Shown: piece by piece, positions 4,159 through 35,225 of the stretch
Layout: the number at the start of each line of letters is the position of its first letter
Position numbering within the stretch: the first letter of the stretch is position 1
From: an uncultured Verrucomicrobiae bacterium
GTDB lineage: Bacteria; Verrucomicrobiota; Verrucomicrobiia; Chthoniobacterales; Chthoniobacteraceae
NCBI GenBank assembly: GCA_963769025.1
Contig: CAVYKI010000009.1
Location: 1,216,001 to 1,280,000, forward strand
Direction of reading: 5' to 3'
Length of the DNA stretch: 64,000 bases
Translations under genes and position numbers: made by a program
The notes under the pieces: model-generated
The model's database searches: none
What the model was told of the DNA's origin: nothing
What the model saw: only the letters and a program-made list of their open reading frames with translations

Positions 4159-4329
4159 CTACTGCGCCTGCTGCACCTCCGGGCCGGTGTCCTCGGAAAT
4201 CAGCCAGAGGATGTTGGGCTTCGCCGGCCTGTCCGCCGCCGCGGCCTCACGCAAAGGAGCGGAGATGCTGGGGACTGAGAGCAGCAGGGCCGCGGCGGAG
4301 CGGACGGTTCTGAGGGAGCTGTGGTTCAT
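4159..4329 (-). pseudogene. Truncated sulfatase N-terminal fragment (56 aa)
   Basis: Manual translation MNHSSLRTVRSAAALLLSVPSISAPLREAAAADRPAKPNILWLISEDTGPEVQQAQ*: signal peptide plus the sulfatase PNI-x-x-x-x-x-D/E-D start motif, then a stop. Confidence 0.6.
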
Positions 4330-4450
4330 GAGGGATGAAGCATCGGAGGGTTATCTGCGCGAGGGGAGAAAGTGGCCGCGTTCGGCGATGTCGTGGAGCA
4401 ACAGTGCGGCACAAATCAGGCTTTCACCGCCTCAGCGCCGTCGTCGGCAC

Positions 4451-5941
4451 TCAGTCGAAACTCGGATCCGCCGCCAGCGCCATCTCGCGCCGGCGCTCGC
4501 TCTCGGGCTTGCCGGTGTTGCCGGCCCCGCGCTTGCGCTTCGCCTTTCCCTCGCCGCCGGTCAGCGAAAGATCGGAGTCATTCTTCTGTGCCTCGCCCGG
4601 CGTGCTGCGCCCGCGGGCGATGTAGGTTTGCATCAGCGCAGTCAGCTTCGTCGCGATTTCACCATTCGCCGCGAGCACGTCCTTCGTCTCGCTCAAGTCG
4701 TCGGCGAGATTGAAGAGTTCCCGCTTCCCCGTCTTGTGAAAGATCGCCTTCCACGGACCCTGGCGGATGGCGAGATCGCCGGCCGCGGACTGGTGCACGG
4801 TGGCTTCGCGCACGCCGTCCTTTGCGGTGCCGGAAAATTCCGGGAGCAGGCTCACGCTGTCTTCGCCGGCGTTGGCGGGCAGTTTCGCGCCGACGATTTC
4901 CGCGGCGGTCGCCATCAGATCATTGAGGCAGACGGTGTGAACGTTCACCGAGCCGGGCTTGATTTTCCCCGGCCATCGCGCAGCGAACGGCACGCGGTGC
5001 CCGCCCTCGTAAATGCTGCGCTTCGATTCGCGCAACGGCTCGTAGGCGCGGTGCTCGGCGCCGTTGTCGCTCGTCGCGATGACGAGCGTGTTGTCCGCAA
5101 GATGATTGCGCTCCAGCGCGTCGAGAAGCTGCCCGAGCATCGCATCGCCCTGTCTGAGCCAGTCGCCGTATTTCGGATCCTTCTTCACCAGATCCTGCGC
5201 GCCGCTTTTCCCCACATGGTCCGGTGCCGGCACGATCGGCTCATGGGGCGGACACATCGGGAAATAGAGGAAGAATGGTTCCCCCTGCTTCCGCTGCCCG
5301 ATCCACTCGACCGCTTTCCTGATCATCAGCGGCTGATTTTCCACCGCCCCGACATGCGCCACCACGCGATCCTGCTCGATGATCGTGCCGATGTTCCGCG
5401 CATGGGTGAAACCGTAAAAGTAATCGAAGCCGATGGCGTTCGGCCCGTCCGTCATCTTCGCGCCGATGGGCACTTCCTTATCGGTGCCCGGCTTGCCATC
5501 CACCCAGTTCATCCCGAGATGCCACTTGCCGATGCACGCGGTCGCGTAGCCGTTCTGCTTCAGCAGCGACGCCACCGTGAGCCGGCTCGCCGGGATGATC
5601 GGCGTTGAAAAAGTCGTGAGCACCCCGAACTGCCCGATTCGCGAAGGATACCTCCCCGTGAGCACGCCGTAACGCGTGGGTGTGCAGACTGCGGAACCCG
5701 TGTGCGCATCCGTAAAGCGCATTCCCTGCTGCGCAAGACGGTCGAGGTTCGGCGTGCGCAAAGCGGAACCGGCATTGTAACTTTGCGGCTGCCCCCAGCC
5801 CATGTCATCGAACAGGACGAAGATGATGTTCGGCTTTGCGGCCGTGCTCGCATCGGCGGCATGCACCGTTGGCAGCGCCGCCAGCGCAAAAGCTGCGCCA
5901 ATCACAAACGCGATGGGTGTCGGGGAGTTGCTTTGTCTCAT
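4451..5941 (-). CDS. Arylsulfatase A-like sulfatase (Cys-type)
   Basis: KPNIIFVLFDDMG, signature CTPTR...LTGR, GKWHLG, SDNG, EGGHRVP. Confidence 0.93.
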   Translation of the reverse strand: MRQSNSPTPIAFVIGAAFALAALPTVHAADASTAAKPNIIFVLFDDMGWGQPQSYNAGSALRTPNLDRLAQQGMRFTDAHTGSAVCTPTRYGVLTGRYPSRIGQFGVLTTFSTPIIPASRLTVASLLKQNGYATACIGKWHLGMNWVDGKPGTDKEVPIGAKMTDGPNAIGFDYFYGFTHARNIGTIIEQDRVVAHVGAVENQPLMIRKAVEWIGQRKQGEPFFLYFPMCPPHEPIVPAPDHVGKSGAQDLVKKDPKYGDWLRQGDAMLGQLLDALERNHLADNTLVIATSDNGAEHRAYEPLRESKRSIYEGGHRVPFAARWPGKIKPGSVNVHTVCLNDLMATAAEIVGAKLPANAGEDSVSLLPEFSGTAKDGVREATVHQSAAGDLAIRQGPWKAIFHKTGKRELFNLADDLSETKDVLAANGEIATKLTALMQTYIARGRSTPGEAQKNDSDLSLTGGEGKAKRKRGAGNTGKPESERRREMALAADPSFD

Positions 5942-6280: not shown

Positions 6281-6354
6281 TGCCTCATGGTGTAACGGTA
6301 GCACAGCAGACTCTGAATCTGCTTGTCTAGGTTCAAATCCTAGTGAGGCAACCA
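6281..6354 (+). tRNA. tRNA-Gln (anticodon CTG)
   Basis: Acceptor stem TGCCTCA/TGAGGCA, anticodon arm GCAGA-CTCTGAA-TCTGC, T arm CTAGG-TTCAAAT-CCTAG, encoded 3' CCA. Confidence 0.96.
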
Positions 6355-6539: not shown

Positions 6540-7140
6540 TAAGCAATCATTCCTGAGAGACACGAGACTCCGGGTCGTGGCCAGACAATCGTTCCCGGCG
6601 GACACCTCGCTCCGGTGGGTGCGCAGACAATCGTTTTCAAGGATCACCTCGCTCCGGCGTGCTGAAACACAATCGTTTTCCGGGGACATCAGGCTCTGGT
6701 TCCGCGAAAGACAATCATTCCTGAGAGGCACCCCGCTCCGGTCTCTCAGGAACGATTCGTTTTGGCGTCCGACCCTCTCATTCCTGCCCAAACGCAATCG
6801 TTCCTGAGAGTCCCCAGCTTTCCGGGTGAGAAAACACAATCATTGCTGAGAGTCCCGAGCCTCCCGTCTGCCAATTCGGATTGTCGCGCAAGGCTCCGGA
6901 GCCTCCTGTCTGCCAATTCGGATTGTCGCGCGGGGTTCCGGAGCCTCCCGTCTGCCAATTTGGATTGTCGCGCGGGGCTCCGGAGCCTCCCGGCAACGAA
7001 TTTGGATTGTCGCGCGGGGCTCCGGAGCCTCCCGGCAACGAATTTGGATTGTCTGGCCGCGTTCCGGAGCGGGTTGTCCCTCCAAAACGATCATCTGCTG
7101 ATTGTCCCGAGCCTCCCGGCAGTCAGGACGGATTGGTTTT
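6540..7140. repeat. Degenerate 42-bp phased tandem array whose core motif inverts midway
   Basis: CAATC at 6544, 6586, 6628, 6670, 6712, 6795, 6837; then GATTG at 6879, 6921, 6963, 7005, 7047, 7131. Right-hand unit approx. CCGGAGCCTCCCGTCTGCCAATTCGGATTGTCGCGCGGGGCT. Confidence 0.85.
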
Positions 7141-7316
7141 TCACGCGCCCGAACTTCGAAACAAGGGCCGAGGCCATACCGCGGACCGGCGCCTTCCTCC
7201 GCCGCGAGCGGCACCGCGCCGGCTGCGGGTCGGCCCGGACCGGACCAGCCTCGGGGCAACGATTGCTCGGAAATAGGTTGCCGCAAAGCCGCGCACCACT
7301 TCCCTTTCCCGCCCAC

Positions 7317-10300
7317 GTGAAACCCGGCGCTCCGAATCTGCTCGATGCCATCGGCCGTGAGCCTTCGCTTGCGGCGAAGCTGCGCGCAGTGACGGAGGGC
7401 GGCGACGGGATTGTCTTCGAGCAGGTGACGGAGGGAGCGCATTCGGCATTGTGCGCGGCCATCGCGCGGGCCGCGCAGCCGACGGGAAGCCGGGTGTGGC
7501 TCGTGTGCCCGGCCCTGCGGGCGCAGGAGCAGCTGCACAACGAGCTGCTGCAATGGACGCCCGACGCGCTCTTTTTCCCGGAGCTGGAAGTGGCCCCCGT
7601 GGAGGGCGCGATTCCGGACCCCGAGACGGTGGCCGAGCGGCTCGCCATCATCCACCGGCTCAATGCGCGCGACGACGGGAAGAAGCCGCTCGTGATCGTG
7701 CTCACGAGGGCGGCGCTGGAAGAGGCGGTGCCGGACTCGGAGGAGATGCAGGCGCTGGAAATGCGGCTTTCGCGCGGCGAAACGGTGATGCGCGAAATGC
7801 TCCTCGGACGGCTGAGCGCGGCGGGCTACGAGCAGGCGGCGCAGGTCTCGCAGCGCGGGCAGTTCGCGGTGCGCGGCGGCATTGTCGATGTTTTCAGCTT
7901 TCACCACACGCTGCCGACGCGGCTGGAGTTCTTCGGCGACGAACTGGAGAGCATCCGGCAGTTCGACCTCGATGCGCAGACAAGCGTGGAGCAGCTCCCG
8001 TCCTGCACGATCCTCCTCGGCCAGGCGGTGCCTCGCGCGCGACGGCTGCGCGACTGCATCCGGGAGCGGGACATCACCGTGGATGTCGGCGCGGACTGGC
8101 TGGAGGCGAAGGTGACGATCAGTGCTGGATCGGTCGGCGGAGAATTCACCACGGAGGACACGGAGAACACGGAGGGAGTCACAGGAGATTCTGACTACGA
8201 CTCTTTGCATACCTCCGTGCCCTCTGTGGTTGAATCACAAGCATTCGACTACTCGCTTGCCTTCTTTGACAACGGGCTCGGGGAATTTGAGGCGGGCGAT
8301 TTCGTCGTCGATGAGGCGCGGCGCGAGCGGTTCTTCGCGCAGCTCACGGAATGGCGCACGCAAGGGTGGAGCACCTTCGTCTTTTGCAACAACGAGGGCG
8401 AAATCGAGCGGCTGCGCGATCTGATCCCCGCGGTGGAGGCGGACGCGCTGCAATTTTCGGAGGGCACGCTCGGGCGCGGGTTCACCTTCCCGGCCGGACG
8501 CGTCGCGGTGCTCAGCGACTCGGAGCTCTTCGGCCGCTACCGCAACACCCGCGCGCGGCGGATCGCACTGAAGCGCTCGCGGGAGATCGTCAGCCGTTCG
8601 CAGATTGATTTCAGCGAACTGATTGAGGGCGAACTCGTCGTGCATCTCGAACACGGCATCGCGCGCTTCGAGGCGCTGAAGCAGCTCGCGAACGGCGAGG
8701 ACGTGCTCGCGCTGGAATTTGCCGAGGACGCCAGGCTCTACGTGCCGCTCGACCAGAGCTACCTCATCGCGCGCTACGTGGGCATCGGGAAAAAGCATCC
8801 GCCGCTCAGCAAGCTCGGCGATGCGGCGTGGACGAACGCGAAGAAGAAGGCGGAGAAGGCGGCGTTCGACTACGCGGGCAAACTGCTCGAAACGCACGCG
8901 GCGCGCGAGACGCAGAAGGGCTTCACCTTTCCGCCCGACAGCAAGTGGGTGCGCGAATTCGAGGCGTCGTTTCTTTACAAGGAAACGCCGGACCAGCTCA
9001 CCGCCATCGCCGACACGAAGGCCGACATGGAGACGGAACAGCCGATGGACCGGCTCATCTGCGGCGACGTGGGCTTTGGAAAAACGGAGGTGGCGATCCG
9101 CGCGGCGTTCAAGGCGGTGTGCGCGGGCAAGCAGGTCGCCATCCTCGTGCCGACGACCGTGCTCGCGGAGCAGCACTGGCGGAATTTTCGCGAGCGCATG
9201 AGCGACTACCCGGTGACGGTGGACATGCTCAGCCGCTTCCGCACGCGCGGGCAGCAGGTGAAGACGCTCGCGGGAGTGAAGGACGGCACCGTGGACATCG
9301 TCATCGGCACGCACCGGCTCATCTCGAAGGATGTGGAGTTCAAGGATCTCGGGCTCGTGGTGATCGACGAGGAGCAGCGCTTCGGCGTGCTGCACAAGGA
9401 GCGCTTCAAGCAGATGTGGCCGCTGGTGGATTTGCTCACGCTCTCGGCGACGCCGATCCCGCGCACGCTCTACCTCTCGCTCATGGGCGCGAAGGACATG
9501 AGCACCATCGAGACCGCGCCGCTGAACCGCATCCCGGTCGAGACGCTCATCTGCCCGTACGACGAGCGCATCATCCGCGACGCGATCCAGCGTGAGCTGA
9601 AGCGGCAGGGCCAGGTGTTCTTTCTCCACAACCGCGTCGGCGACATCCAGAGCGTGGAGGCAAAAATCCGCATGCTCGTCCCCGGCGCGCGCACACTCGT
9701 CGGCCACGGGCAGATGGCGGAGCATGAGCTGGAGGAAGTGATGCACCAGTTTGTGAAAGGCGACGCGGATGTGCTCATCTCCACGACGATCATCGAGAGC
9801 GGCGTGGATATCCCGAACGCGAACACGATCATCATCGACCGCGCCGACCGTTTCGGGCTCGCCGATCTCTACCAGCTCCGCGGACGCGTCGGGCGTGCGC
9901 AGCACAAGGCGTACGCCTACCTGATGCTGCCGCGCGACATGCTCGGCACGGGCGAGGCGAGGAAGCGCATCAATGCGATCAAGCAATACGGCTCGCTGGG
10001 CGCAGGTTTCAAAATCGCGATGCGGGATCTGGAAATTCGCGGCGCGGGCAACATCCTCGGCACCGCGCAGAGCGGGCACATTGTGACCATCGGCTTCGAG
10101 CTTTACTGCGCGATGCTGCGCCAGGCGATCGCGAAGCTGAAAGGCGAACGCAGGAAATCGCGAATCGAGGTCGCGCTGCATCTGGACTTTGTCGTGCTGC
10201 GCGAGCCCGGCTTCCTCGAAAAGGAGCGCAAGGCCGGCTGGGCGCCCGCATTTCTGCCGACCGGCTACATCGAGGAGACGCACGCGCGCATCGCCGCGTA

Positions 10301-10589
10301 CCGCCACCTCAACGAACTCAGCACGCAGGAGGCGCTCGACAAGCTCCGCAAGGACTGGCGCGACCGCTTCGGCCGTTTCCCGGAGGCGGTGGAAAACCTC
10401 CTCACGCTCGCCGAGCTGCGCATTTCCTCCGCGGCGCGGAAGATCACGGTGGTCGAGGTGAAGGACGACAAGCTGATGCTCACGCGCGGCGGCGACTTCA
10501 TCCTCATCGGCGGGAAATTCCCGCGCCTCACGGCCAAGGGCGGAACCCCGCGGCTGCGCGAGACGTTGAAAATGATCCGCAGCCTGTGA
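7317..10589 (+). CDS. mfd: Transcription-repair coupling factor
   Basis: [85 protein letters not shown] start at 7317 is inferred. Confidence 0.96.
8144..8235. repeat. Palindromic (REP-like) element inserted in frame within mfd
   Basis: ATTCACCACGGAGGACACGGAG...CTCCGTGCCCTCTGTGGTTGAAT inverted arms containing CACGGAG repeats at 9-nt spacing, with an AT-richer loop. Confidence 0.7.
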
Positions 10590-24053: not shown

Positions 24054-24996
24054 ATGAAAATCACCTACGCCTCGCTGCTGGCTGCCGTCGTGCCGACGTT
24101 TGTGGTCCTCGCGTGCGGCTTTGCGTTGCGGCGGTTTCGCGGCCTCCGCTCGGAGGCCGACGCGAGCCTGCTTACCGTCGCGGTCAATTTCCTCTATCCG
24201 TGCTTCATCGCGGACACCATCCTGCGCAGCCCCGCATTGCGCGACGTGCGAACGGTGGCGAGCGCACCGGCGATCGGCTTTGTCCTGCTGCTGCTGTGTT
24301 TTGCGCTCGCGGCTCTCGCCGCGAAATTGCTCCCGCTGAAATGGCCGCAGCCCGCGCGGACCTTTGCGTTCAGCGCGGCGATTCCGAATTGGGGCTATCT
24401 CCCGGTGCCCCTCGTGCAGCAGCTCTTCGGCACGGACACGATGGGCGTCCTCTTCGTCCACAACATCGGCCTCGAACTCGCGCTGTGGTCCGCCGGCGTC
24501 TGGCTGCTCTCGGGGAGCGGTTCGTGGCGGCGGGTCCTCACGGTTCCGTTCTTCGCGATCCTCGGGGCGCTCGCGCTGAATCTCGTCCACGCCGGAGACT
24601 GGCTGCCCGGCGTGGTGCTCGAGTCGCTGCACCTGCTCGGCCAGGCGGCGATTCCCCTCTCGCTCCTGCTCACCGGCGCGGTGCTGGCGGACTCCGTCGT
24701 CTCGCTCCGCGACGACCGCCGCCCGTTGATCACGGTGGCCGGCTGTGTCGTCCGACTCGCGCTGCTCCCGCCGCTGTTCCTCGCCGCCGCGCACTGGCTC
24801 CCGGTGTCGCTGGACCTCAAGCGCGTGCTCGCCGTGCAGGCCGCGATGCCGTGCGCGATGGTCCCCATCCTCCTCTCGCGTCATTACCGCGGAGACATCG
24901 GGATCGCCGTCCAGATCGTCCTCGCGAGCACCGCGCTGGGATTGCTCACGATCCCGCTTCTGGCTGCGCATCGGCTTCGCGTGGCTCGGGCTTTAA
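24054..24996 (+). CDS. AEC family (auxin efflux carrier) transporter; frameshift at the C-terminus
   Basis: PNWGYLPVPL, GQAAIPLSLLLTG, QAAMP, ST.LGLLTIP. The true end LRIGFAWLGL* is in the frame of ORF 24745-24996. Confidence 0.88.
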
Positions 24997-25076
24997 AGGG
25001 GTACCGTCGGACTTTCCACCCACGCCGCGGGTTCGACAGCCGCCCGGCCTTCTGCCACAACTCCCCGGCAAAGCCC

Positions 25077-25568
25077 ATGCCCTCCTCACCAAACAACGCC
25101 GCCGTCTTTGCCCTCGATGCCGACTTCCTCTGGGACGACTTGGAGGACGCCATGGCCGGATGCGTGAACTGGCAGAGCGCGAAGCGCGGCAAGATCATCC
25201 CCCTCCTCTTCTTCGCGCCGATGACCGCCCCGGCAAACCCCGACGCGTGGGAACCCCTCCAGGGCCCGCCGCAGCACCTCCTCATCATCTCCATCGAGCA
25301 CAGCTCCGATGCCACCCTCCGCCGCGCCATCCGCCACGCGTCCGGTGTCCTCGGCGAACTCCATGAGCCGGCCAACTGTCCCCACGTGGACATCGCCTTC
25401 GACGGGCATCCCATCGCCGAAGCCTATGCGCAGATGGAGGCTGCCGACATCACCGCCTACCGCTACAGCAGTCTCGTGAAGGACGACGTCTCCTTCTTCT
25501 TCATCCGGGGGCCCGAAGCCGTGCAGGCCTTCGGCCAAGGTCTCCGCCGCGCGACTGCGGGGAAGTAA
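25077..25568 (+). CDS. Hypothetical protein
   Basis: ATG at 25077; 163-aa globular-looking ORF (MPSSPNNAAVFALDADFLWDD...) with coding-like codon bias. Confidence 0.6.
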   Translation: MPSSPNNAAVFALDADFLWDDLEDAMAGCVNWQSAKRGKIIPLLFFAPMTAPANPDAWEPLQGPPQHLLIISIEHSSDATLRRAIRHASGVLGELHEPANCPHVDIAFDGHPIAEAYAQMEAADITAYRYSSLVKDDVSFFFIRGPEAVQAFGQGLRRATAGK

Positions 25569-25755
25569 CATCGCCGCACTGCCGGGCTACCGCTCCATCG
25601 GCACCGGGAACCGGACACGAAGGACGCGGCGTACGGACCACTCGATGACCTTCCGGTCCTTCCGGGAAGTGATTGCCCCTAGCCGCACCTTCGCAGGCGA
25701 GGCCGGATCGTCGGGAACGGGGGAGAAATTCGGATTATCAGCCTGCCCTCGCCCC

Positions 25756-26122
25756 TCAGGCCTCAAACGGATTGATGAGTCGCAGCCCGCTGACGTGTTT
25801 GAAGTCGTCCACGTTCCGCGTCACCAGTTCCAAGCCATGCACCAGGGCCGTAGCGGCGATGATGGCGTCCGCTAGTGCCCATCCTGCTTTCCTGCCGCAA
25901 CGCGATGGCCCGATCGATGACCGCCGTATCCAGCGGATGCACCGTCAGGCGGCGAAACAAAATGTCGAGCGCGGCTTTCTCCTCCGGTTTCAGCCCCGTG
26001 AACCCATACACCTCGATCGGTGTGACGCTGGCCACCCCATTGTCCCCGGAGACCACCAGCGCCTCGATTTCCGGCACGGTCTGGTTCGCTGCGTAAATCA
26101 GAATGTTGCTGTCCAGGAGCAT
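25756..26122 (-). CDS. vapC: VapC-family PIN-domain toxin; frameshift near 25875
   Basis: LLDSNILIY...IEVYG, then in the shifted frame ADAIIAATALVHGLELVTRNVDDF...LINPF. Confidence 0.88.
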
Positions 26123-26125
26123 CGC

Positions 26126-26386
26126 TCAATCCCGGCCCGGCATCGGACGGTCTTTGCGGATTTCCCGCTGCCAGGCCACGGGGTCGGTGATCTCCTTGAA
26201 CGTGCCCATCTCCCGCAACCGCTTGAGCGCGGCCAGCGCCGCCTCCCGCGTCGGTCGTTCGCTTTCCTCGGACGCAGCTTCGATGGTGGCCGTCACTTTC
26301 AACTTGGAATTGCGCAACTCTGCCGGCAGCGGCAGATGCACCGTGCCATCGGCGTCGGCTTCCAAAATCGCGGTGATCGTGCTCAC
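26126..26386 (-). CDS. Putative antitoxin of the VapC toxin
   Basis: 86-aa ORF 3 nt upstream of vapC; GTVHLPLP N-terminus and DPVAWQREIR..R C-terminus typical of small PIN-associated antitoxins. Confidence 0.75.
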   Translation of the reverse strand: MSTITAILEADADGTVHLPLPAELRNSKLKVTATIEAASEESERPTREAALAALKRLREMGTFKEITDPVAWQREIRKDRPMPGRD

Positions 26387-26497
26387 GCAAAGAGATTACC
26401 CCGGCGCGTGCCCTGCGTAAAGCCGCGACTCGCCCGCTTTCTCGTTCCAATCGCGCTCCAAGGCTCCCAGTCCTCGGCTTGCGGAGGCGTCTGCCAA

Positions 26498-29400
26498 TTA
26501 CCCTTTGAGAACCTTCTCCCGCCACCGCCGCACGCTGCTCAGGTCCAGCCGTTCGCCTTTGAACTCGATCTGCTTCACCGGCTTCGTCCCGTTCGCGCTT
26601 TCGCGTTGGAGCACGCTCGATGATTTCCATCCAGCGCACGTCGGCGAATTCCAGCTTCGTCACTGCCGATCGCGCGCTCGTCGTCCTCCGAGAAGGTGCC
26701 GATCACCAGCATCACCGGATGCGGCTGCTGGATCCACGTCTTCACCCAGCGCTGCTTCTTGATCGTGAAAACCTCCGCGCCGTCGGTCTTGCGCTTCGTG
26801 AGGTGGGAATTGCCGGACTTGAGTTGCAGGTAGAGGCCGGCGTGCCGATGCCGTTCGCCGTCGTCATTGGTGAACTCGAGCTCAGCATATCCAGCCCGTC
26901 GTCCTCCGTCCGCCGGAATCTCGAAGCACTTCTGATCGGCGCTGGTGATGCGCGCGCCGACCTCCAGCGCCAGCAGCTTCCCGCGTCGGCGGGTACTCCA
27001 GCTTCGCGAGATCATCGGCCTGCAGTTGCTCGACCTGCGCGCGCACCGCGTCGCTGGCAAACTTCTTCTCCAGCGCATCCCACAGCGGGAAGCGCTCGCC
27101 GCAGTCGTCGCATTCCGTGTCGGCGTTCTGCTTTTCGCGCAGCAGCTTCTTCATCAGCACCTCGGGATTGCCTTTCGGCGCGTGACACTTCGGGCAGACG
27201 TAGTGCCGGAGCCGTTGCGCCTGTTCGCAGGAGGTCTGGAGGTGCGCGTGGATGTAGTTGGCAAAGATCACCTGCTCCTGCTGCGTCACGCCCTTGCCGA
27301 AATAGACGCTGATGTCCCCGTCGCTGCCGCTCTCGCGCGTGAGCTTGAGGCCCATGTGATGATCGCCCGCGAGCGTCACGAAGTCCGCGGCGTCGCGCCA
27401 GAGTTCCTTGAGTTGTGAAGGACTCGCTGTCCGCCAGCTTCACCACCAGCGTCGCGTAGATGTCGTCGAGAAAGCCCTTCACCGCGTAGCTCACGAAGAC
27501 CGACGGATGCTCCAGCACCGCCGGGCGGTCGCGTCCGCAATGGCTCGGGAAGACGAGCTTGTCGCCCTGGCGCAGGCAGAGGCCGCGCTGCTCCAGTTGC
27601 CGCTCCATCTCGCCCAGCACCACGCGCTCCTCGGCGGGCGGCAGGCGCTTCATCTCCACGGGAGCGCCGTCGCGCCCGATGCTCTGGTAGATCAGCTTCC
27701 CTTCCGCGATGCTGCGCAGCGGCAGCACGCCGAGATCGTTCTCCGCGCTGCGCAGGGTGCGAATCACGGCTTGCGCGTAGGCATTGATCCACTCCGGCGC
27801 GAGCAGGATGTAGGTGCCGTAGTCGAGTTCCTTCACCACGCCGGGACCGTCCAGCAGGCCGATCACCGTCTGCAAGGTCTCGTCCGTGAAGCGCGGTTCG
27901 TCCGGCAGGCGCCGCCAGAGCAGTTCGCGCAGTTCCTTGAAGGTGTGCAGCACCTGCCCTTCGTCCCGCAGCTTCAGGATCTCGTCCTTGATCAGTTTGA
28001 AAATGCGCGGCGACGTGCGCTTCTCCATCTGCGCCCAGGATGCCGGCGATCATGGCCGCGCGCAGTTCGTCGCAGCCGGTGCCGTCCTTCGCGCTCGTCT
28101 CATGGTAGGCGAGCCCCTGTTCCTTCGCAAAGGCTTGCAGCTTTCCCCGGCTCGCCTTGAAGCCGGTATCGATCCGCCCGGCCACGAGGAAGTGCGAAAT
28201 CTTCTCCTTCACGCTGCGCCGCAGAGCCGTCTGCCAGTCGCGCAGACCGGGCAGGACATCCTCTTGGTCCGCATTGAACAGTAGCAGGATGAGTGCGGTG
28301 CGATCCATGTAGAGCTGGTGAATGAGGCGTTGATCCGCCTGCCCGCCGAAATCCCATAGCCAGATGTCCCGTTCTACACCTTGCTCCACACTGGCGGCCT
28401 TGAGTTGCCACTGCGTGGACCACGCGCCAACCGTGGAGTCTTCACTCGGCTTCCATTCGCCGGTGGCGAGACGGTGCGTCAACCCGGTCTTGCCCGAGTG
28501 AGTATCGCCGACCAGGAGGACTTTGGCGTTGGTATATTCAATTTGGTCGCGCCAGAGAGGTAGGTCGTACGCGCGAGATGCGGACGCTCGTGCTTCAGCA
28601 GTTAATTCTTCCAAATCCCACACCCTAATTCCTCCGCGCTTGTCGCCGGAGAACGCGTAGCGTTGTTCTGCGCTCCACGCCACGATGCGGATTTCGTGTT
28701 TGTGACCTCTGAGCACTAGCAAACAGCGGCCAGTCTCGATATCCCAAAGGCGCACGGTGTTATCTGACGAACCAGACAATGCACGGCTCGCATCGCTGTT
28801 CAAAGCCAAGCTCGTAACTCGATTCGCATGGCCTTCGAGCACACGTAAACATCGCGCCGAGTCCGCCTCCCAAACACGAATAGTTCTATCGTGTGAACCG
28901 GACAATATGAGACGTTGATCGGCACTCCACGCTATACTCCGAACCTGACCAGTATGGCCTCCAAACACGCGAAGACACTCTCCGGTCTCAATGTCCCATT
29001 GGCGCACACTGTGGTCGTCAGAGCATGACAAGCCGCGGCGCTGGTCAGCACTCCACATTACACGCCAAACTAGAGAATAGTGTCCTTCAAACACGCGAAG
29101 ACATTGGCCTGTCTCAATATCCCATAGCCGCATCGTGCCATCGTCCGAGCCCGAAAGTGCGCGAGCGTTGTCCGCGCTCCACTCGGCGTGCCGAACCGCG
29201 TTTGTGTGACCCTGAAAGACTCGATTACGTCTCCGTGAATTAAAATCCCACATTCGCATGGTCTTGTCCGAAGAGCATGTGAGAATACGCCGCTGGTCAT
29301 TGCTCAGGGCGACACTGTTCACACGACTAGCATGGCCTCTGAAAGTAAGGAGGCACAATCCCGTCTTCGCATCCCAAAGCCGCGCTATGTTCTCAGTCCC

Positions 29401-29925
29401 ACCTGTTAGCGCGTGGTTACCGCTTGGGCTGAACACAAACGCTAAAAGCCTCCCCTTCGATCGAAGCTGGACGGCATTTGCCTCAACCTCCTCCTCCTCT
29501 TCCGTCGGCATCGTAGGAGGCGGCCGGCACGCTTCGAGGAGCTTCACATATTCCTGCTCGCGCTCTGCCGGGCGCCAGTTGATGTAAAGGAATTGCGCCA
29601 GGGAGCCTTTGATGGGGGCGTCGTCGAGGCGCAGGGGAAGGAAGCGGCGCTCCTTGTTCAGCGGGTCGCGAAAGCGGAACGTGCCGGACTCCAACTGCGC
29701 CCAGTCCGAGCCGAACGCATTCGCCGACATGCAGAGCACGAGCACGCGGGAGCGCTCCAGCCCTTCCTCGATCTTCGCCGGAATGCTGTCGCCGGGCCGG
29801 ATCTCCCATTCATCGAACCACACCCGCAGCCCGTCCTTCCTCAGCCGCTCCGCCACGTCGCGCACGACCGGCTTGTCCTTCGCGCTGTGGCTCAGGAAGA
29901 CGTCGTAGGGGAAATCCTCAGGCAT
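26498..29925 (-). CDS. TIR - 7xWD40 - Roc GTPase - COR-like - Zn ribbon - DUF4365-like nuclease protein (Roco-like); several frameshifts
   Basis: TIR: YDVFLSHS..DK...W.D...I.PGD...SDWAQLE. Seven ~42-aa GH...WD repeats. Roc: GDTHSGKT, STVG, WDFGGQ, ETSAK. COR-like: ILLAPEWI...YAQAVIR. CPKC...CDDC. C-terminal DDGLD..LEF...LYLQLKSG. Pieced together from ORFs 27376-29925, 27012-28028, 26882-27379 and 26575-27078. Confidence 0.85.
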
Positions 29926-30184
29926 AAGGCGGTGGCATTTGGGACGGCGAGGACTGCGCGGCGTTTACATTTGCCGCTGCGTCCGCTGCGCCGCCGGGTG
30001 CTGTCTCGTGTGTCATGCCGCGTGGGAGGATGGAGATTCGCCGCGGAGGATGCACGATCGCGGGAAGCGAGGCGAGGAGGAAAAGCAGGACTTGGATTCG
30101 AGTGGAACGAAAAGCCTGCCGCAGGCAGCCCGAAGGGCAGCGCCGGAGGGCGCTGGCAAGCTTGGAGACGCGGGACTGGAGAGT

Positions 30185-30469
30185 TCACCAGCGGCGCGCC
30201 CCTTGCCGGGCGAAGGGCGGGCGGCGGCAGATGACTACGGTGACGGCTTCCAGCGCGGCGGCGAGGCGGTTCTCGACGCAGAGCTTGTCGAGGATGCGGC
30301 GGACGTGGGTGGAGACGGTGAAGTTGCGGAGGTCCATGATGCCGGCGATTTCGGGGTCGGTCTTGGCGTGGAGGATCCATCGCAGCACTTCGCCCTCGCT
30401 CGGGGTGAGCAGGGGGAATGAATCGCGGAGGGTGACGGGCGTGAGTTCGTAGGGAGCGGGAATTTTCAT
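30185..30469 (-). CDS. Stand-alone LuxR-type HTH regulator
   Basis: LTPSEGEVLRWILHAKTDPEIAGIMDLRNFTVSTHVRRILDKLCVENR. Confidence 0.82.
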   Translation of the reverse strand: MKIPAPYELTPVTLRDSFPLLTPSEGEVLRWILHAKTDPEIAGIMDLRNFTVSTHVRRILDKLCVENRLAAALEAVTVVICRRPPFARQGARRW

Positions 30470-30560
30470 GGCACAGCCATTTCAGATAGCGTGCCAAGTG
30501 GCATCCGTAGGTCTCGGTATGGTGGGAAGAAGGGCCGGGTGCCAGCATCCGCGCCATGAA
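30470..30560 (-). pseudogene. Possible remnant of an integrase N-terminal SAM-like domain
   Basis: SSHHTETYGCHLARYLKWLC resembles the S.RTE..Y..W.RR.I.F helix pattern of integron/phage integrase N-termini; no catalytic domain follows. Confidence 0.3.
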
Positions 30561-30838
30561 ACGGAGTAAGCCGCACACTTCTCTCGCCGCCACTGGCGGC
30601 AATGCGTGTTCCCTCCACAGCACGGCGGCCGTGTTCAGGCGCGGCGGATGGCGCGGGCCGGGACATGTGGTGGTGGGCGGTGACACCTTCCGTGGCATGG
30701 GGACGTCAGTCATGGCTGTCTATTTTCAGGGGAAGGAGTGGCAAATGACTGCCACGGGCGTCGCTGCGGGGGCAGGACGCCTGCTTGGTTCGGAAACTGC
30801 ATTCCGTCCGATGCGCGGGGGCCTTTCCGAACCCGCAG

Positions 30839-31250
30839 CAACAGTTGCCGGAGCATGGGGGAGACTCCTCCGGCCTTGGACAACACTTGCCGGAGCATGG
30901 GGGAGACTCCCCCGGCCTTGGACAACACTTGCCGGAGCTTGGGGGAGACTCCCCCGGCCTTGGACAACACTTGCCGGAGCATGGGGGAGACTCCCCCGGC
31001 CTTGGGCAACACTTGCCGGAGCATGGGGGCGACTCCTCCGGCCTTGGACAACACTTGCCGGAGCATGGGGGAAACTCTCCCGGCCTTGGACAACACTTGC
31101 CGGAGCATGGGGGAGACTCCCCCGGCCTTGGACAACACTTGCCGGAGCATGGGGGAGACTCCCCCGGCCTTGGGCAACACTTGGTGGCGCCTGGGGGAGA
31201 CTCCTTCACCTCCGGACAACAGTTGGCACAGCTTTGGGGAGGCTCCTTTG
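30839..31250. repeat. Tandem array of ~10 x 42-bp units, each with an internal hairpin
   Basis: Unit CAACACTTGCCGGAGCATGGGGGAGACTCCCCCGGCCTTGGA starting at 30839, 30881, 30923, 30965, 31007, 31049, 31091, 31133, with degenerate copies at 31175 and 31217; no spacers. Confidence 0.95.
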
Positions 31251-31413
31251 CCTCGGAAAACGCCTGTTTTCCGGCTTGGCCGCCCTGATTACCCCCGCGC
31301 CCGCGATGGCGGCGTGGGATGAAGGGGCCTGGGATGATGGATTCTGGGACACGCCGACGCCGCCCGCCTTTCCGCTGATTCCGCAGGCCAAAAAACCAAC
31401 CAACCGAAAAACC

Positions 31414-32334
31414 ATGGCTACAAACCCAACCCCCGATGACGATGACGTGCTCATCTCCCTGACCGAAGAACTCGCCGACGGCTGCCACCTGCACGAGGTG
31501 GCCCTCGGCATCAAGCAACAGACCGAGGCGGTCATGCGCGCCGGCCTGCTGGCGTCCAAGACCGCCCTCCTGGGCCTCGGCGCCGCGCGCGTGCTGGTGG
31601 ACCAGAAGAACGACCTCTTCCAGGCGGCGGACGCCGCGGGCGAGACCGTGCTGAAGAACTGCCGCCTGCGGCTGGTGAAACTCTTCGGCACGCAATACAA
31701 CTCCAACTGGCAGGCCGCGGGCTGGCCCGACCAGTCCACGAAAATCCCGCTCAGCCAGGACAAGCGCCTGACGCTGCTCGGCGCGCTGGATCTCTACTTC
31801 ACCGCCAATCCCTCCGCGGAGAGCGAGGACATGGACGCGACCGCCGCCATCTGCCACACCGCGCACGAGGCCATCAGCGATGCGCGGGGCGCGGTGAATG
31901 TGGCGGATTCCGGAGTGACGACGGCGAAGAACACGCTGACGAGCACGATGAAGACCCTGCGCAAGCGGGTGCGCGGCCTCATCGTGGAACTGGGCACGCT
32001 CATGGCCGACGATGACGCGCGCTGGGAGCAGTTCGGCCTGAACATCCCGGCCAACCCCTCGGCCCCCGAGGCGATCGAAGACCTCACGCTCACCGCACTC
32101 GGCGGCGCCAGGGTGCTCGCGCAATGGCCCTACGCCACGCGGATGACGGGCACGCGCATCATGCTGAAGCGCATCGGCACGGACGACGACCCGGTCTCCG
32201 CCGGCAGCGTCGGCGGCCTGGAAAAAGTGCTCGCCGCCCTGACGGTCGGCCAGACCATCGAGGTCTTTGTCATCGCCCACAACGACGGCGGCGACGCCGC
32301 ACCGAGCCCCACGAAGAGCGTGGTGGTGACGTGA
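31414..32334 (+). CDS. Helical-bundle protein with C-terminal fibronectin type III-like domain (possible in-frame upstream start at 31306)
   Basis: A/C-rich leader before ATG 31414; long amphipathic helices with W..AGW and W..FGL motifs; C-terminal P....L.L...G...V...W......L..G....V.V.AHNDGG...PS Fn3-like pattern. Confidence 0.75.
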   Translation: MATNPTPDDDDVLISLTEELADGCHLHEVALGIKQQTEAVMRAGLLASKTALLGLGAARVLVDQKNDLFQAADAAGETVLKNCRLRLVKLFGTQYNSNWQAAGWPDQSTKIPLSQDKRLTLLGALDLYFTANPSAESEDMDATAAICHTAHEAISDARGAVNVADSGVTTAKNTLTSTMKTLRKRVRGLIVELGTLMADDDARWEQFGLNIPANPSAPEAIEDLTLTALGGARVLAQWPYATRMTGTRIMLKRIGTDDDPVSAGSVGGLEKVLAALTVGQTIEVFVIAHNDGGDAAPSPTKSVVVT

Positions 32335-32339
32335 TAGCC

Positions 32340-32450
32340 GAAGGATGAAGGATGAAGGATGAAGGCGGAAGGGTGAAGTCCCCCCGTTTTTCCGCGGTCG
32401 TTTCTGCCTTCCTTCATCCCTCGTCCTTCATCCTTCATCCTTCATCCTTT
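32340..32450. repeat. Inverted heptamer repeats (GGATGAA)n ... (TTCATCC)n hairpin
   Basis: GAAGGATGAAGGATGAAGGATGAAGG...CCTTCATCCTTCATCCTTCATCCTT. Confidence 0.85.
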
Positions 32451-32457
32451 GCCCCCC

Positions 32458-33054
32458 ATGCCCTTCGACCCCTCCAAGCCCGCCGACCGCTCGCCAAACT
32501 CGGCCGCCGAAATGCGCGCGCAACTCATCGGGCTGAAAGACCTCATGGACGCCATCCCCGGGATCACCTCCGCGGTGGTGGATTCGGTGACGACGCTCAA
32601 TCCCGGCGAATCGGCGACGGCGACGTTCACCCTCATCGGCACTGTGCTGCACATCAGCCTCGCGCTCCCGCGCGGCGCGGACGGCATCCCCGGCCTGCAA
32701 GGCGAGGTGGGGTCGCAGGGACCGCCGTTTGCCAATGCGGTCATCGACAGCGTCACGACGCTGAACCCCGGGGACAACGCGACGGTGTCGGTGACCTTCG
32801 ACGGGAACTCGGTGCATTTCAGCTTTGGCATTCCGCGCGGGGCGCAGGGGGAACCGGGGCCGCCGGGGCAGCCGGGCGAGGTGACAAATGCGGACATGGC
32901 CAATGCGATTTCCTCGGTCATCGCCGGCACCTCGAACAACACGAACTCGGTCCCCACGATGGACACGCCCTTCACCAACGACCCGCTCTCGCTGGCCGAT
33001 GGCGAGCTGCTGCGGGCGAACTACAACGCACTCGTCCTCGCGCTGCGCCGGTAG
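32458..33054 (+). CDS. Collagen-like / phage fibre-like protein
   Basis: Two copies of A(V)(V/I)DSVTTLNPG..AT.....G...H.S...PRG, each followed by short G-X-Y runs (GADGIPGLQGEVGSQGPP; GAQGEPGPPGQPGE); C-terminal helix LRANYNALVLALRR. Confidence 0.78.
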   Translation: MPFDPSKPADRSPNSAAEMRAQLIGLKDLMDAIPGITSAVVDSVTTLNPGESATATFTLIGTVLHISLALPRGADGIPGLQGEVGSQGPPFANAVIDSVTTLNPGDNATVSVTFDGNSVHFSFGIPRGAQGEPGPPGQPGEVTNADMANAISSVIAGTSNNTNSVPTMDTPFTNDPLSLADGELLRANYNALVLALRR

Positions 33055-33062
33055 GCGGCGCC

Positions 33063-33199
33063 CCTGGACTGCGGCAGCTCGCTGCCGCTTTCGGCTTCGA
33101 GGCTTGCCGAGAAGGGGGCTGGGGCGGGTGCTCCGATCCCCGCCGCACTCGCCAAGGCTCGCCTGCCACAAAGCGGCGGCGAGCCTCCGCAGTCCAAGG
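33063..33199. repeat. REP-like inverted repeat pair between convergent genes
   Basis: CCTGGACTGCGGCAGCTCGCTGCCGCTTT ... AAAGCGGCGGCGAGCCTCCGCAGTCCAAGG; each arm is itself palindromic. Confidence 0.78.
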
Positions 33200-33211
33200 C
33201 GGTGAGCGGAT

Positions 33212-35125
33212 TCACACCGTGCGCAAACCGCGCCGGAGCACCAGCGCGCCCGCGATCCATAGCACAAGCAGCGGCGCGACGCTCCACCGGCTGCGCGGGA
33301 AGAACAGCTCGCCCGCGTTGAACGAACTCCACCGCGCCGCTTCGGAATGCGCAGGGAATTGCCGGAAGTAGGTGCCGTCCCACGGGCCAATCACATTCGT
33401 GGACACAGGCCCGTCGATGGCGGCGATCCAGAGCGGTTCGGGTTCGCCGCGCATGACTTTCTCCCAGCCCTCGCTACGCAGCTTTGCCACTTGCGCATCG
33501 AGTGCATCGCCAGTCAGCCCCTTCTTCGCCAATCCCGCGCGCTCCTTTCCGATCCATTCGTCGAACTTCGCATCGATCACCGGCCACGCGCGGTCGCGCG
33601 CAAACATCGGCCACGCGTAACGCCAGACAATGCTGTTGCCGGCGAGCTTCTCCTTCCACTCGCCGGGATGGTCCACCCAGACGTGGGCTCCCAAGCCGAG
33701 CGGATTCAGCGCGTCGGTGATCGTCAGCAGCGATTGCTGGGCGATGCTCACCGCGGCAAGGAGGGTCGTCGGACGCGGCCAGCGGACGAAGGCGCCGGCG
33801 AGCGGAATGCAGACGAAAGGCAGCGCGGGAATGAGGTAGCGCGGCCCGGCTGTGAACCCGCCGTGAAAGCCGTTGAAGCAAATGTTGATGAGAAAAAAAT
33901 ACGCGGCGCATGCGAGAATCAGCCGGCGCTCGGCGACGAGCGTCTCCATTTTCCAGCGGCCAATCAGACACGCCAGGGCCAGGATGAGGACCGGCGAGAG
34001 GATGAACACGCCGCGCCACGGCGAGACGGTGATAACCACCGTGGCAAACCACGACGGCCACGAAAACATGCCGAGGAATGCCGGGGCGATTTCCTTGAAC
34101 GCCGGATTCTGGAAACTCGTGTTCAATGCAAACGGCGATCCGAATGCCGCGACATTGTACGCCAGCAGCGCGACGAGGCACGGCAGGACGCCGAGCGTGA
34201 AGCGCGCGGCATTGCCCCACTGCAAACGCAGGTCCGCCGGGTCCCCAGCGGGTTCCGCATTCGGACGGTCCGGCACCTGCCGTCGGCGCCTGCAAAGGAG
34301 CCACACGCCGAACATCGCGCCGGGGATGGCGGCAAGGTAGTTCGTCAGCGCCGCGATGCCGGCCCAGACGCCGGAGGAAACCGGCCGTCCATTTCGCGCC
34401 GACGAAAATGACGCGAGAAGAAGAACGGCCGTCACGTTGTGGTCGAACATCAGCGTCGCAAACGGGAAGAACGTCGTCCCAAAGCCGAATGCCAGCGCGG
34501 CTCCGAGCGCGGCAGCGGGATGGCCCGGATACAATTGCGCCGCGACCCGGAGCACGAGCACGACGCCGAGCGCGGAGACGAGCCCCACGGTCAGCACGGA
34601 GCAAAGCCACACGTTCACGTTCAGCACCCACCAGTCATCCGGATCGAGCCCGAGCCAGCGCTCGACGTGGTAGAGCACAAAGTACGGCGGCACCGCGAGC
34701 AACGAGGCGCCCGGCGGTTTGTTCGGGTGGAAATGCCCGTCCGGCGCCATGCCGACATCGCCCGTGCAGGTGCCTTCGCCGACGACGACCATCGTCGCGG
34801 TGGGATCGAGCGGCGTGTCGTTCACCGTGAGCTGCTGCCAGTCGGGCTTCTCCTTCGTGCCGACATTCCGCCAGTCGCCCCACGAGAGCTGATGCCGCAC
34901 GCCGCCGTAGCTATATTCCCCGCGCTCCACCTTCGAGCGCACGAGCTTCCGCCCCTCGCCGCGGTGAAAGACCATGTAGTCGTTGATTGCGAGGCGCCCC
35001 TGCTCCACGATGGCGCGCACCTCGGCAAAACGCGCATTCTGGTTCCATCCACCGCCTTGGTGGAACCACGCGAAGGTGATGAAGGACAGCGCGAACAGCA
35101 GCGACTGGAGGCGGCGGGTGGGCAT
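33212..35125 (-). CDS. Polytopic membrane protein, probable GT-C-fold glycosyltransferase
   Basis: Many TM segments; PNKPPGASLLAVPPY, YNVAAFGSP, GPRYLIPALPF motifs. Confidence 0.65.
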   Translation of the reverse strand: MPTRRLQSLLFALSFITFAWFHQGGGWNQNARFAEVRAIVEQGRLAINDYMVFHRGEGRKLVRSKVERGEYSYGGVRHQLSWGDWRNVGTKEKPDWQQLTVNDTPLDPTATMVVVGEGTCTGDVGMAPDGHFHPNKPPGASLLAVPPYFVLYHVERWLGLDPDDWWVLNVNVWLCSVLTVGLVSALGVVLVLRVAAQLYPGHPAAALGAALAFGFGTTFFPFATLMFDHNVTAVLLLASFSSARNGRPVSSGVWAGIAALTNYLAAIPGAMFGVWLLCRRRRQVPDRPNAEPAGDPADLRLQWGNAARFTLGVLPCLVALLAYNVAAFGSPFALNTSFQNPAFKEIAPAFLGMFSWPSWFATVVITVSPWRGVFILSPVLILALACLIGRWKMETLVAERRLILACAAYFFLINICFNGFHGGFTAGPRYLIPALPFVCIPLAGAFVRWPRPTTLLAAVSIAQQSLLTITDALNPLGLGAHVWVDHPGEWKEKLAGNSIVWRYAWPMFARDRAWPVIDAKFDEWIGKERAGLAKKGLTGDALDAQVAKLRSEGWEKVMRGEPEPLWIAAIDGPVSTNVIGPWDGTYFRQFPAHSEAARWSSFNAGELFFPRSRWSVAPLLVLWIAGALVLRRGLRTV

Positions 35126-35225
35126 TGAGGGAAAGACGAATGCCGGATGATGCAGGGCGAAAGAAGCGCGAAATTGCGGCACACACGGCTTGCCTTCGCC
35201 ATCCGTCATCCGTCATCCGTCATCG

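Follow-up and report, generated by a model that had tools for sequence, protein, structure and literature searches.

A stretch of 64,000 nucleotides from an uncultured Verrucomicrobiae bacterium (GenBank assembly GCA_963769025.1, contig CAVYKI010000009.1, positions 1,216,001 to 1,280,000; hereafter the window) carries a cassette in which a tandem array of 42-bp units precedes a gene for a protein with a helical bundle and a fibronectin type III (Fn3) domain (gene1), a strong intergenic hairpin, and a gene for a collagen-like protein (gene2). This arrangement is a recurrent, multi-copy cassette of the Verrucomicrobiota that has not been described previously; no paper on such arrays or cassettes was found in those parts of the literature that a full-text search could reach. 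An initial annotation of the window had proposed a compact, recurrent, unnamed unit, and the core of this idea holds because homologues of the two genes are strongly linked to arrays and to each other, an observation confirmed to be far beyond chance. The elements listed there, namely a LuxR-type helix-turn-helix (HTH) gene, the 42-bp array, an Fn3-like C-terminus, a heptamer hairpin, a collagen-like gene, and a pair of repetitive extragenic palindromic (REP) elements, are all present. The cassette copy of the window (30839-33054) comprises:

30839..31268, no strand assigned: non-coding 42-bp tandem array of 8 well-kept and 2 decayed units (Tandem Repeats Finder, TRF; units in register)
31306..32334, + strand: gene1, 342 aa, with a Trp/Asp-rich leader, a helical bundle, and an Fn3 domain
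32339..32451, + strand: heptamer-repeat hairpin, ~37 bp long, which stops 6 nt 5' of the gene2 start codon
32458..33054, + strand: gene2, 198 aa, collagen-like (family alignment, Pfam Collagen, weak PHROG tail-fibre matches)

The initial annotation had staked its proposal on homologues being tied to arrays, and this tie was found. A scan of one genome per species gave 71 loci, which overlap earlier locus sets and come nearly all from metagenome-assembled genomes titled as Verrucomicrobiota, a few labels being odd or unspecific. A tandem repeat lies at most 800 nt upstream of gene1 in 50 of the 59 loci that have at least 500 nt of upstream sequence, and its period is 41, 42, 84, 123, or 126 bp in all 50. 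Of 70 loci, 43 have a gene2-type start after gene1. Over all 56 arrays the periods are 42 (35 arrays), 84 (11), 126 (5), 123 (4), and 41 (1), while just 24 of 500 TRF rows from the genome to which the window belongs (the own genome, G000) show a period of 41, 42, or 84. Among 22 loci with wide flanks, a 41-42-bp array was located upstream of gene1 in 17 and gene2 downstream in 11; clustering of the neighbours revealed, besides gene1 and gene2, no cluster in more than three of these loci, and a cluster spanning 3 of the 22 is unnamed.

The own genome contains four gene1 places and gene2 in seven full copies. In the closest paralogue, at C9:551-553 kb (79% identity), the entire layout recurs with different repeat sequences: a 42-bp array of 10 copies with the same core, gene1, a heptamer hairpin differing in sequence from that of the window, gene2, and an octamer-repeat hairpin. 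Matches to gene1 occur in 15 of 41 drawn genomes, the own genome counted, at up to 12 places per genome, and in 13 of the 24 other genomes of the genus within this draw. Full-length matches were obtained in just two of 300 other sampled genomes of the phylum (G160 and G065), where one of four loci has a 42/84-bp array. The best-matching cassette of genome G014 (83% identity) is homologous to the window copy over 30857-32623 only and has unrelated flanks; therefore, cassettes occupy different sites in different genomes, and the flanking genes also differ from copy to copy. In the same genome two gene1 places 31 kb apart (C21:303419-304345 and 334504-335430) have identical scores, and each is accompanied by a 41-bp array of 7 copies and gene2, which looks like a recent duplication of the whole cassette.

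The window array was reported by TRF at 30839-31204 with a period of 42, 8.7 copies, 94% matches, and a score of 641; when units are kept in register, it ends at ~31268. Each unit contains the palindrome GGGGGAG-A-CTCCCCC, and the core GGGGGAGNCTCCCCC has 12 copies in the 5.34-Mb assembly, all 12 within the array of the window or that of the closest paralogue. The units are contiguous, with no CRISPR-like spacers between them. From one cassette to another the unit sequences are wholly different and the period is constant. The distance between array and gene1 is ~70-300 nt, gaps near 100 nt being frequent. The array is non-coding, because 41-bp periods shift the frame and because the open frame meets a stop between the array and gene1 in three loci (L011, L012, and L024); a translation into 14-residue repeats is excluded on the same grounds. 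Of the 56 arrays, 48 contain a dyad whose arms measure 5 bp or more, with stems of 5 to 9 bp. The centres of the 42 distinct dyads measure 1 nt in 21, 3 nt in 13, 0 nt in one, and 2 nt in one, so that 23 of them are complementary up to a centre of 0-2 nt, where an RNA hairpin could not pair. Two dyads per unit exactly 21 bp apart, as seen in the arrays first examined, did not prove general (4 of the 15 arrays with a decent second dyad). Nor is GGAGNCTCC, the GAG-N-CTC core, a genome-wide site: 22 of its 80 copies lie in three arrays, and the remainder are no commoner than comparable palindromes.

The Trp-Asp stretch that the initial annotation had placed ahead of the first gene is real and conserved, although not as a separate leader peptide: gene1 starts at 31306 and not at 31414, and the Trp/Asp-rich stretch MAAWDEGAWDDGFWD is its in-frame N-terminus, free of stops. 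The gene thus consists of a leader (31306-31413), a helical bundle (31414-32061), and an Fn3 domain (32059-32331). At least 90% of 48 gene1 homologues retain residues W4, D5, W9, and W14, and the leader of the closest paralogue differs from that of the window copy by synonymous, third-position changes. Met37 (31414) is nearly invariant and is preceded by an A-rich stretch, so a second, shorter gene1 product is possible. The AlphaFold2 model (predicted local distance difference test, pLDDT, 88) has a disordered N-terminus, a helical bundle at residues 46-243 with two helices of ~54 residues (pLDDT 95.6 when modelled alone), and a C-terminal Fn3 domain at residues 252-342. The last aligns with 3f7q_A (VIA Z 15.6, root-mean-square deviation 1.4 A over 89 residues) and with titin Fn3 (Foldseek E 2.3e-6), and it alone was matched when the gene1 profile was compared with Protein Data Bank (PDB) sequences (E 2.1e-6). 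The whole protein belongs to no Pfam, PHROG, NCBIfam, or PADLOC family. For the helical domain, Foldseek against PDB returned no match at E <= 0.001 and the ESM Atlas unnamed clusters only; the top VIA-align hit, a YscO homologue with Z 9.0, is within the noise of helical bundles. The profile of this domain collected 1272 clusters (50% identity) at E <= 1e-3 among 1.84 billion representatives, and the only names seen among them were 'hypothetical protein' and 'fibronectin type III domain-containing protein'. The domain is therefore a large family that has neither a Pfam model nor an informative name.

In other cassettes of the own genome, the first gene that accompanies gene2 has the same kind of N-terminus on a different body. 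The order of this portable leader is Trp-x-Asp/Asn-x-Gly repeats, a Pro-rich part, a Lys/Thr-rich part, and Met. First genes sharing it were found on C13 (285 aa), C2 (291 aa, with an Fn3 domain), C10 (199 aa), and C3, and comparison of their profiles gave alignment mainly in the leader. Two loci show a modified layout. At L056 (G000 C13:16000-26000), a gene for a 23S rRNA-intervening-sequence protein, a four-helix bundle (4252-4881; Pfam E 6.5e-30), lies between the first gene and gene2 but on the opposite strand, within an 8/16-mer repeat block. At L068 (G000 C10:388000-397000), a 22-bp array of 7.9 copies (4564-4780) lies between the Trp-leader gene and gene2 and not upstream.

The hairpin separating the two genes is made of heptamer arms, GAAGGAT x5.6 at 32340-32378 and TCCTTCA x5.7 at 32410-32449 (TRF). 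As RNA it folds with -65.2 kcal/mol (z -8.7), a value reached by 0 of 200 shuffles, and short-period repeats are found in the gene1-gene2 spacer of 35 of 43 loci. Tandem arrays of 7/8/14/16-mers are not confined to this position: the own genome has 60 (TRF score >=50), often as inverted pairs giving long hairpins, and 10 of the 60 are situated <=2.5 kb from its roughly nine cassettes. Such short-unit inverted arrays are an unusual construction of terminator-like hairpins.

According to the family alignment (A3), the N-terminal 35 aa and the C-terminal ~50 aa of gene2 are conserved; the middle holds two copies of a ~45-residue beta-module with short Gly-X-Y runs between them. Pfam Collagen (PF01391) matches 12 of 15 family members, with a best E of 1.8e-14; window gene2 itself gives E 8e-4 and 19.6 bits, below the cut-off of 27.2. 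With its conserved ends and its Gly-X-Y runs between globular modules, gene2 resembles the collagen-like fibres of bacteria and phages (PF01391), but its N- and C-terminal modules match no family and it has no phage context. Also unlike those fibres, it carries neither signal peptide nor anchor, judging from a reading of the sequence alone, which likewise revealed no signal peptide in gene1.

Genes that might serve the array as regulators stand next to it in part of the loci. At E <= 1e-3, 25 of 57 loci have a small Cro/C1-type (XRE) HTH gene that immediately precedes the array on the same strand, and in 20 of these 25 it scores above the Pfam cut-off (HTH_3/HTH_31); in the first locus set this applied to 7 of 8 candidates. 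The initial annotation had suggested that the helical-Fn3 protein could bind the array. This is unlikely, as the gene1 protein is acidic throughout (isoelectric point, pI, 4.9; net charge -12); the gene2 protein has a pI of 4.3, and the acidity of both makes neither a likely array binder.

We favour, tentatively and at slightly less than an even chance, the reading that a helically phased array of dyad sites controls a horizontally moving two-gene fibre operon. The array would act as duplex DNA in units four helical turns long, which would place all dyads on one side of the helix, and a dimeric DNA-binding protein would load cooperatively along it. The candidate reader is the HTH protein of the cassette itself, if it encodes one, or else a factor acting in trans, which the window copy would require. 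Occupancy of the array would turn the entire downstream operon on or off, and the intergenic hairpin may set the ratio of the gene1 to the gene2 product. Structurally, the gene1 and gene2 proteins would form a pair, an adaptor together with a trimeric fibre whose ends are conserved and whose middle varies. The constant four-turn unit and the palindromes that pair to a single central base fit a dimer that would read one face of the DNA.

Known systems offer partial precedents for such an array. The closest known architecture is the sopC centromere of plasmid F, in which a 43-bp direct repeat occurs 12 times and SopB binds a 16-bp inverted repeat within each copy (PMC3177203). Both sopC and the cassette array are made of direct repeats of about four helical turns with one dyad per unit and a copy number around ten. 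Unlike sopC, the cassette array has no ParA/ParB-type genes nearby among its recurrent neighbours, is placed upstream of structural-looking genes, exists in many versions of different sequence on one chromosome, and has no known binding protein. The small HTH gene beside dyad sites upstream of an operon, found in those 25 of 57 loci, recalls Cro/C1 (XRE) repressor-operator modules, but these have one to three sites, whereas the cassette has three to ten phased ones; moreover, the XRE gene is absent from many cassettes, that of the window included, and the dyads do not track the recognition helix. In plasmid iterons, direct repeats of 17-22 bp bound by Rep are spaced by ~22 bp. Helically phased repeats beside a gene are common to iterons and the cassette, and some related cassettes of the own genome have 21-22-bp arrays; nevertheless, the cassette lacks a Rep gene and origin features, and its units are dyads instead of asymmetric sites.

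Several results weigh against the proposed control of a fibre operon by the array. The window copy is devoid of an XRE gene. Near-identical XRE recognition helices (L029 and L033) adjoin arrays with different variable dyads, and very different XREs adjoin arrays that have the GGAGNCTCC core in common; this core is found in 30 of 56 arrays only. Between array and gene, no promoter motif emerged: the sigma-70 promoter scan gave 0 sites, and the search for sigma-54 GG-N10-GC elements in 63 loci reached at best 8 of 12 consensus positions, with scores no better than those of shuffles or the antisense strand. A k-mer search of the array-gene1 spacers also found no common motif. Finally, the export, location, and partnership of the gene1 and gene2 proteins are putative.

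The main rival is a role of the array at the level of RNA, which appears unlikely on balance and yet carries a sizeable share of our belief. The array would then work in transcribed form, its tandem hairpins making a leader or an intercistronic element, e.g., between the XRE gene and gene1, and it could serve attenuation, stability, processing, or unit-by-unit protein binding. The strand biases of the arrays argue for this and against duplex DNA as the acting form: stem variants on the sense strand are G:T in 53 cases vs. A:C in 32, single-base centres are T in 13 arrays vs. A in 3, and among 3-nt centres ATC occurs in 5 vs. GAT in 0, with CTC favoured as well. These biases are modest, and the arrays are related by descent and not independent; shared descent or a mutation bias linked to transcription could explain them. 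The 3-nt centres would suit hairpin loops in 13 of the 42 distinct dyads, but the 23 that pair to a centre of 0-2 nt are unusable in RNA. In agreement with an RNA function, pairing is retained while stems differ across cassettes, the XRE gene, array, gene1, and gene2 are on one strand, and the cassette has many other strong hairpins. There is, however, no obvious reason in RNA for a unit fixed at 41-42 nt, although 50 of 50 arrays retain it with stems that vary between 5 and 9 bp, and the conserved GAG-N-CTC core by itself is not long enough to fold. The Rfam search returned no family, the long hairpin giving sub-threshold microRNA-like matches only.

It is less probable still, and in our view improbable, that the array has no function of its own and travels with the cassette as an intergenic minisatellite, selfish or neutral. 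Mycobacterial interspersed repetitive unit-variable number tandem repeats (MIRU-VNTR) are intergenic tandem repeats of tens of bp, dispersed and variable in copy number, and the cassette arrays share all these features. Period-21/42 arrays in the own genome also precede mfd, prepilin peptidase, oxidoreductase, and DUF4279 genes; therefore, the array class is wider than the cassette, and this dispersal, which includes sites beside housekeeping genes, also speaks against a device dedicated to the fibre operon. Copy number changes fast (8.2 vs. 3.2 in two cassettes identical over the first 60 residues of gene1, and also 5.7 vs. 3.7), and the identity of 88-95% between units of an array is expected under unequal crossing-over. 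On the other hand, the length of a neutral unit should wander, whereas all 50 arrays have a period of 41-42 bp or a multiple of it, with gene1 identity down to ~30%; unlike that of MIRU-VNTR, this period is fixed across the phylum and tied to one gene family. The position upstream of gene1 is also fixed, with many gaps near 100 nt, and dyads are retained while the sequence changes.

Two groups of arrays from the own genome illustrate the wider class. The mfd array of the window (~6540-7120) is partly decayed, with a 42-bp period and ~14 units, and was reported by TRF at 6853-7053 with 4.8 copies and a GGAGCCTCC core. It lies between tRNA-Gln (6281-6354) and the mfd/TRCF gene (open reading frame, ORF, 6762-10553), and its ACAATCGTT motif is also present in the cassette arrays at L006 and L030. 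The 21-mer family CAGTCGCGGAACTGGATCGTT and its rotations form three arrays of 17-19 copies (C9:210326-210705, C13:22037-22428, and C10:337034-337400), one of them upstream of a cassette and one upstream of a GFO/IDH/MocA oxidoreductase gene.

We consider it very improbable that the two genes are remnants of the tail-fibre region of an ordinary prophage or supply a resident phage-like particle with spare fibres. The initial annotation had named a decayed prophage as the finding that would undo its proposal, but neither recurrent phage neighbours (22 loci) nor phage relatives of gene1 were seen: tblastn with gene1 gave no match in 50,697 phage records, and an alignment scan of IMG/VR viral contigs confirmed no relative. 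Gene2 does show PHROG matches to tail-fibre and minor-tail families, all weak, the best (E 5.4e-8) being to a family of unknown function, and, in a search confined to the phage records, one weak tblastn match to a phage tail-fibre gene (E 1e-3). Its look-alike cluster by language model comprises viral collagen and head-fibre proteins (score 0.94); this Atlas lead towards a phage head fibre was not supported, with 0 members of A3 matching Pfam Phage_head_fibr. The own assembly, which is 83% complete, has no match to a sheath, HK97 capsid, or baseplate J protein. Least probable of all, and hardly credible, is an anti-phage defence or a partition/centromere module, since the island that holds the window copy together with a TIR-WD40-Roc gene and a toxin-antitoxin (TA)-like pair, and the sopC-like array architecture, are set against the absence of any PADLOC 2.0 family for gene1, gene2, and four other first genes, defence-like neighbours that do not recur, the lack of ParA-, ParB-, or Rep-like genes among the recurrent neighbours of the 22 loci (ParA/ParB were not searched by name), and one chromosome having many arrays of different sequence.

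Extending the DNA-level reading, we regard it as conceivable, although rather unlikely, that geometry-read arrays, the portable leader, and the collagen-like partner make up self-contained cassettes of switchable fibre variants throughout the phylum. If this is true, the array would be read via its four turns and one dyad per unit and not via its sequence, and unrelated first genes would have in common a Trp-rich leader and a collagen-like partner with a swappable middle. As many as a dozen alternative fibre variants would then coexist in each genome, and a nucleoprotein filament forming cooperatively on the array of each variant would lock or release that variant as a whole. The outcome would be a bacterial system for antigenic or host-range variation of an undescribed kind. 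Verrucomicrobiota are abundant in soil and freshwater and genetically little studied; should the cassettes encode switchable surface fibres, they would provide the first handle on surface variation in this phylum. The 41-42-bp period, kept phylum-wide amid sequence turnover, is a natural test case for either regulation by helical phasing or a new RNA architecture. Many gene1-carrying contigs are just 1-3 kb long, and the arrays probably break metagenome assemblies.

In the window, the cassette is part of a larger insertion with the following further features:

24999..33221, no strand assigned: 8.2-kb insertion (island) with the cassette, the LuxR gene, a split TIR-WD40-Roc gene, and a TA-like pair
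30185..30469, - strand: LuxR/GerE-type HTH gene, 94 aa (Pfam GerE), a neighbour whose membership in the cassette is not supported
33066..33195, no strand assigned: REP-like inverted pair, a genome-wide element that is not cassette-specific

The genes at 24054.. and 33212-35209 are direct neighbours in five of five related genomes examined. In nucleotide comparison with three of these five, homology stops at 24990-24998 and restarts at 33222-33233, and ~62 nt stand in place of 24999-33221 (62 nt in G003). A single insertion of 8.2 kb therefore contains the cassette together with the LuxR gene, the TIR-WD40-Roc gene, and the TA-like pair. The only direct repeat that could flank it is an 11-nt match at chance level, which was dismissed. 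The association with defence that the initial annotation had read into these surroundings does not stand: no PADLOC model applies, and the TIR-Roco gene and the TA pair are fellow passengers of the insertion. The TA-like pair was assigned from ORFs only. The TIR-WD40-Roc gene (26882-29925, - strand) has further overlapping frames at 27012-28028 and 26882-27379; because it is read in three overlapping frames it is probably broken, and it looks frameshifted at least twice, as a pseudogene or through sequencing errors.

The LuxR gene (Pfam GerE E 1.4e-11, 44.2 bits, cut-off 23.5) is oriented divergently from the array at a distance of ~370 bp, and the initial annotation had counted it as a member of the unit. 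It has to be left out: tblastn found no match to it in any other locus examined, and no neighbour besides gene1 and gene2 recurs in more than three of the 22 loci. One other locus, L133, has a GerE-type gene upstream, which was rejected as a counterpart because it is unrelated to the LuxR gene of the window. The REP-like element downstream of gene2 (GGACTGCGGCAGCTCGCTGCCGC) has one copy at 33066 (+) and one at 33173 (-). As it has 56 copies in the own genome at <=3 mismatches, the pair is not specific to the cassette; 47 of the 56 copies are found on contigs C10 and C13, as arrays of 87-184-bp period.

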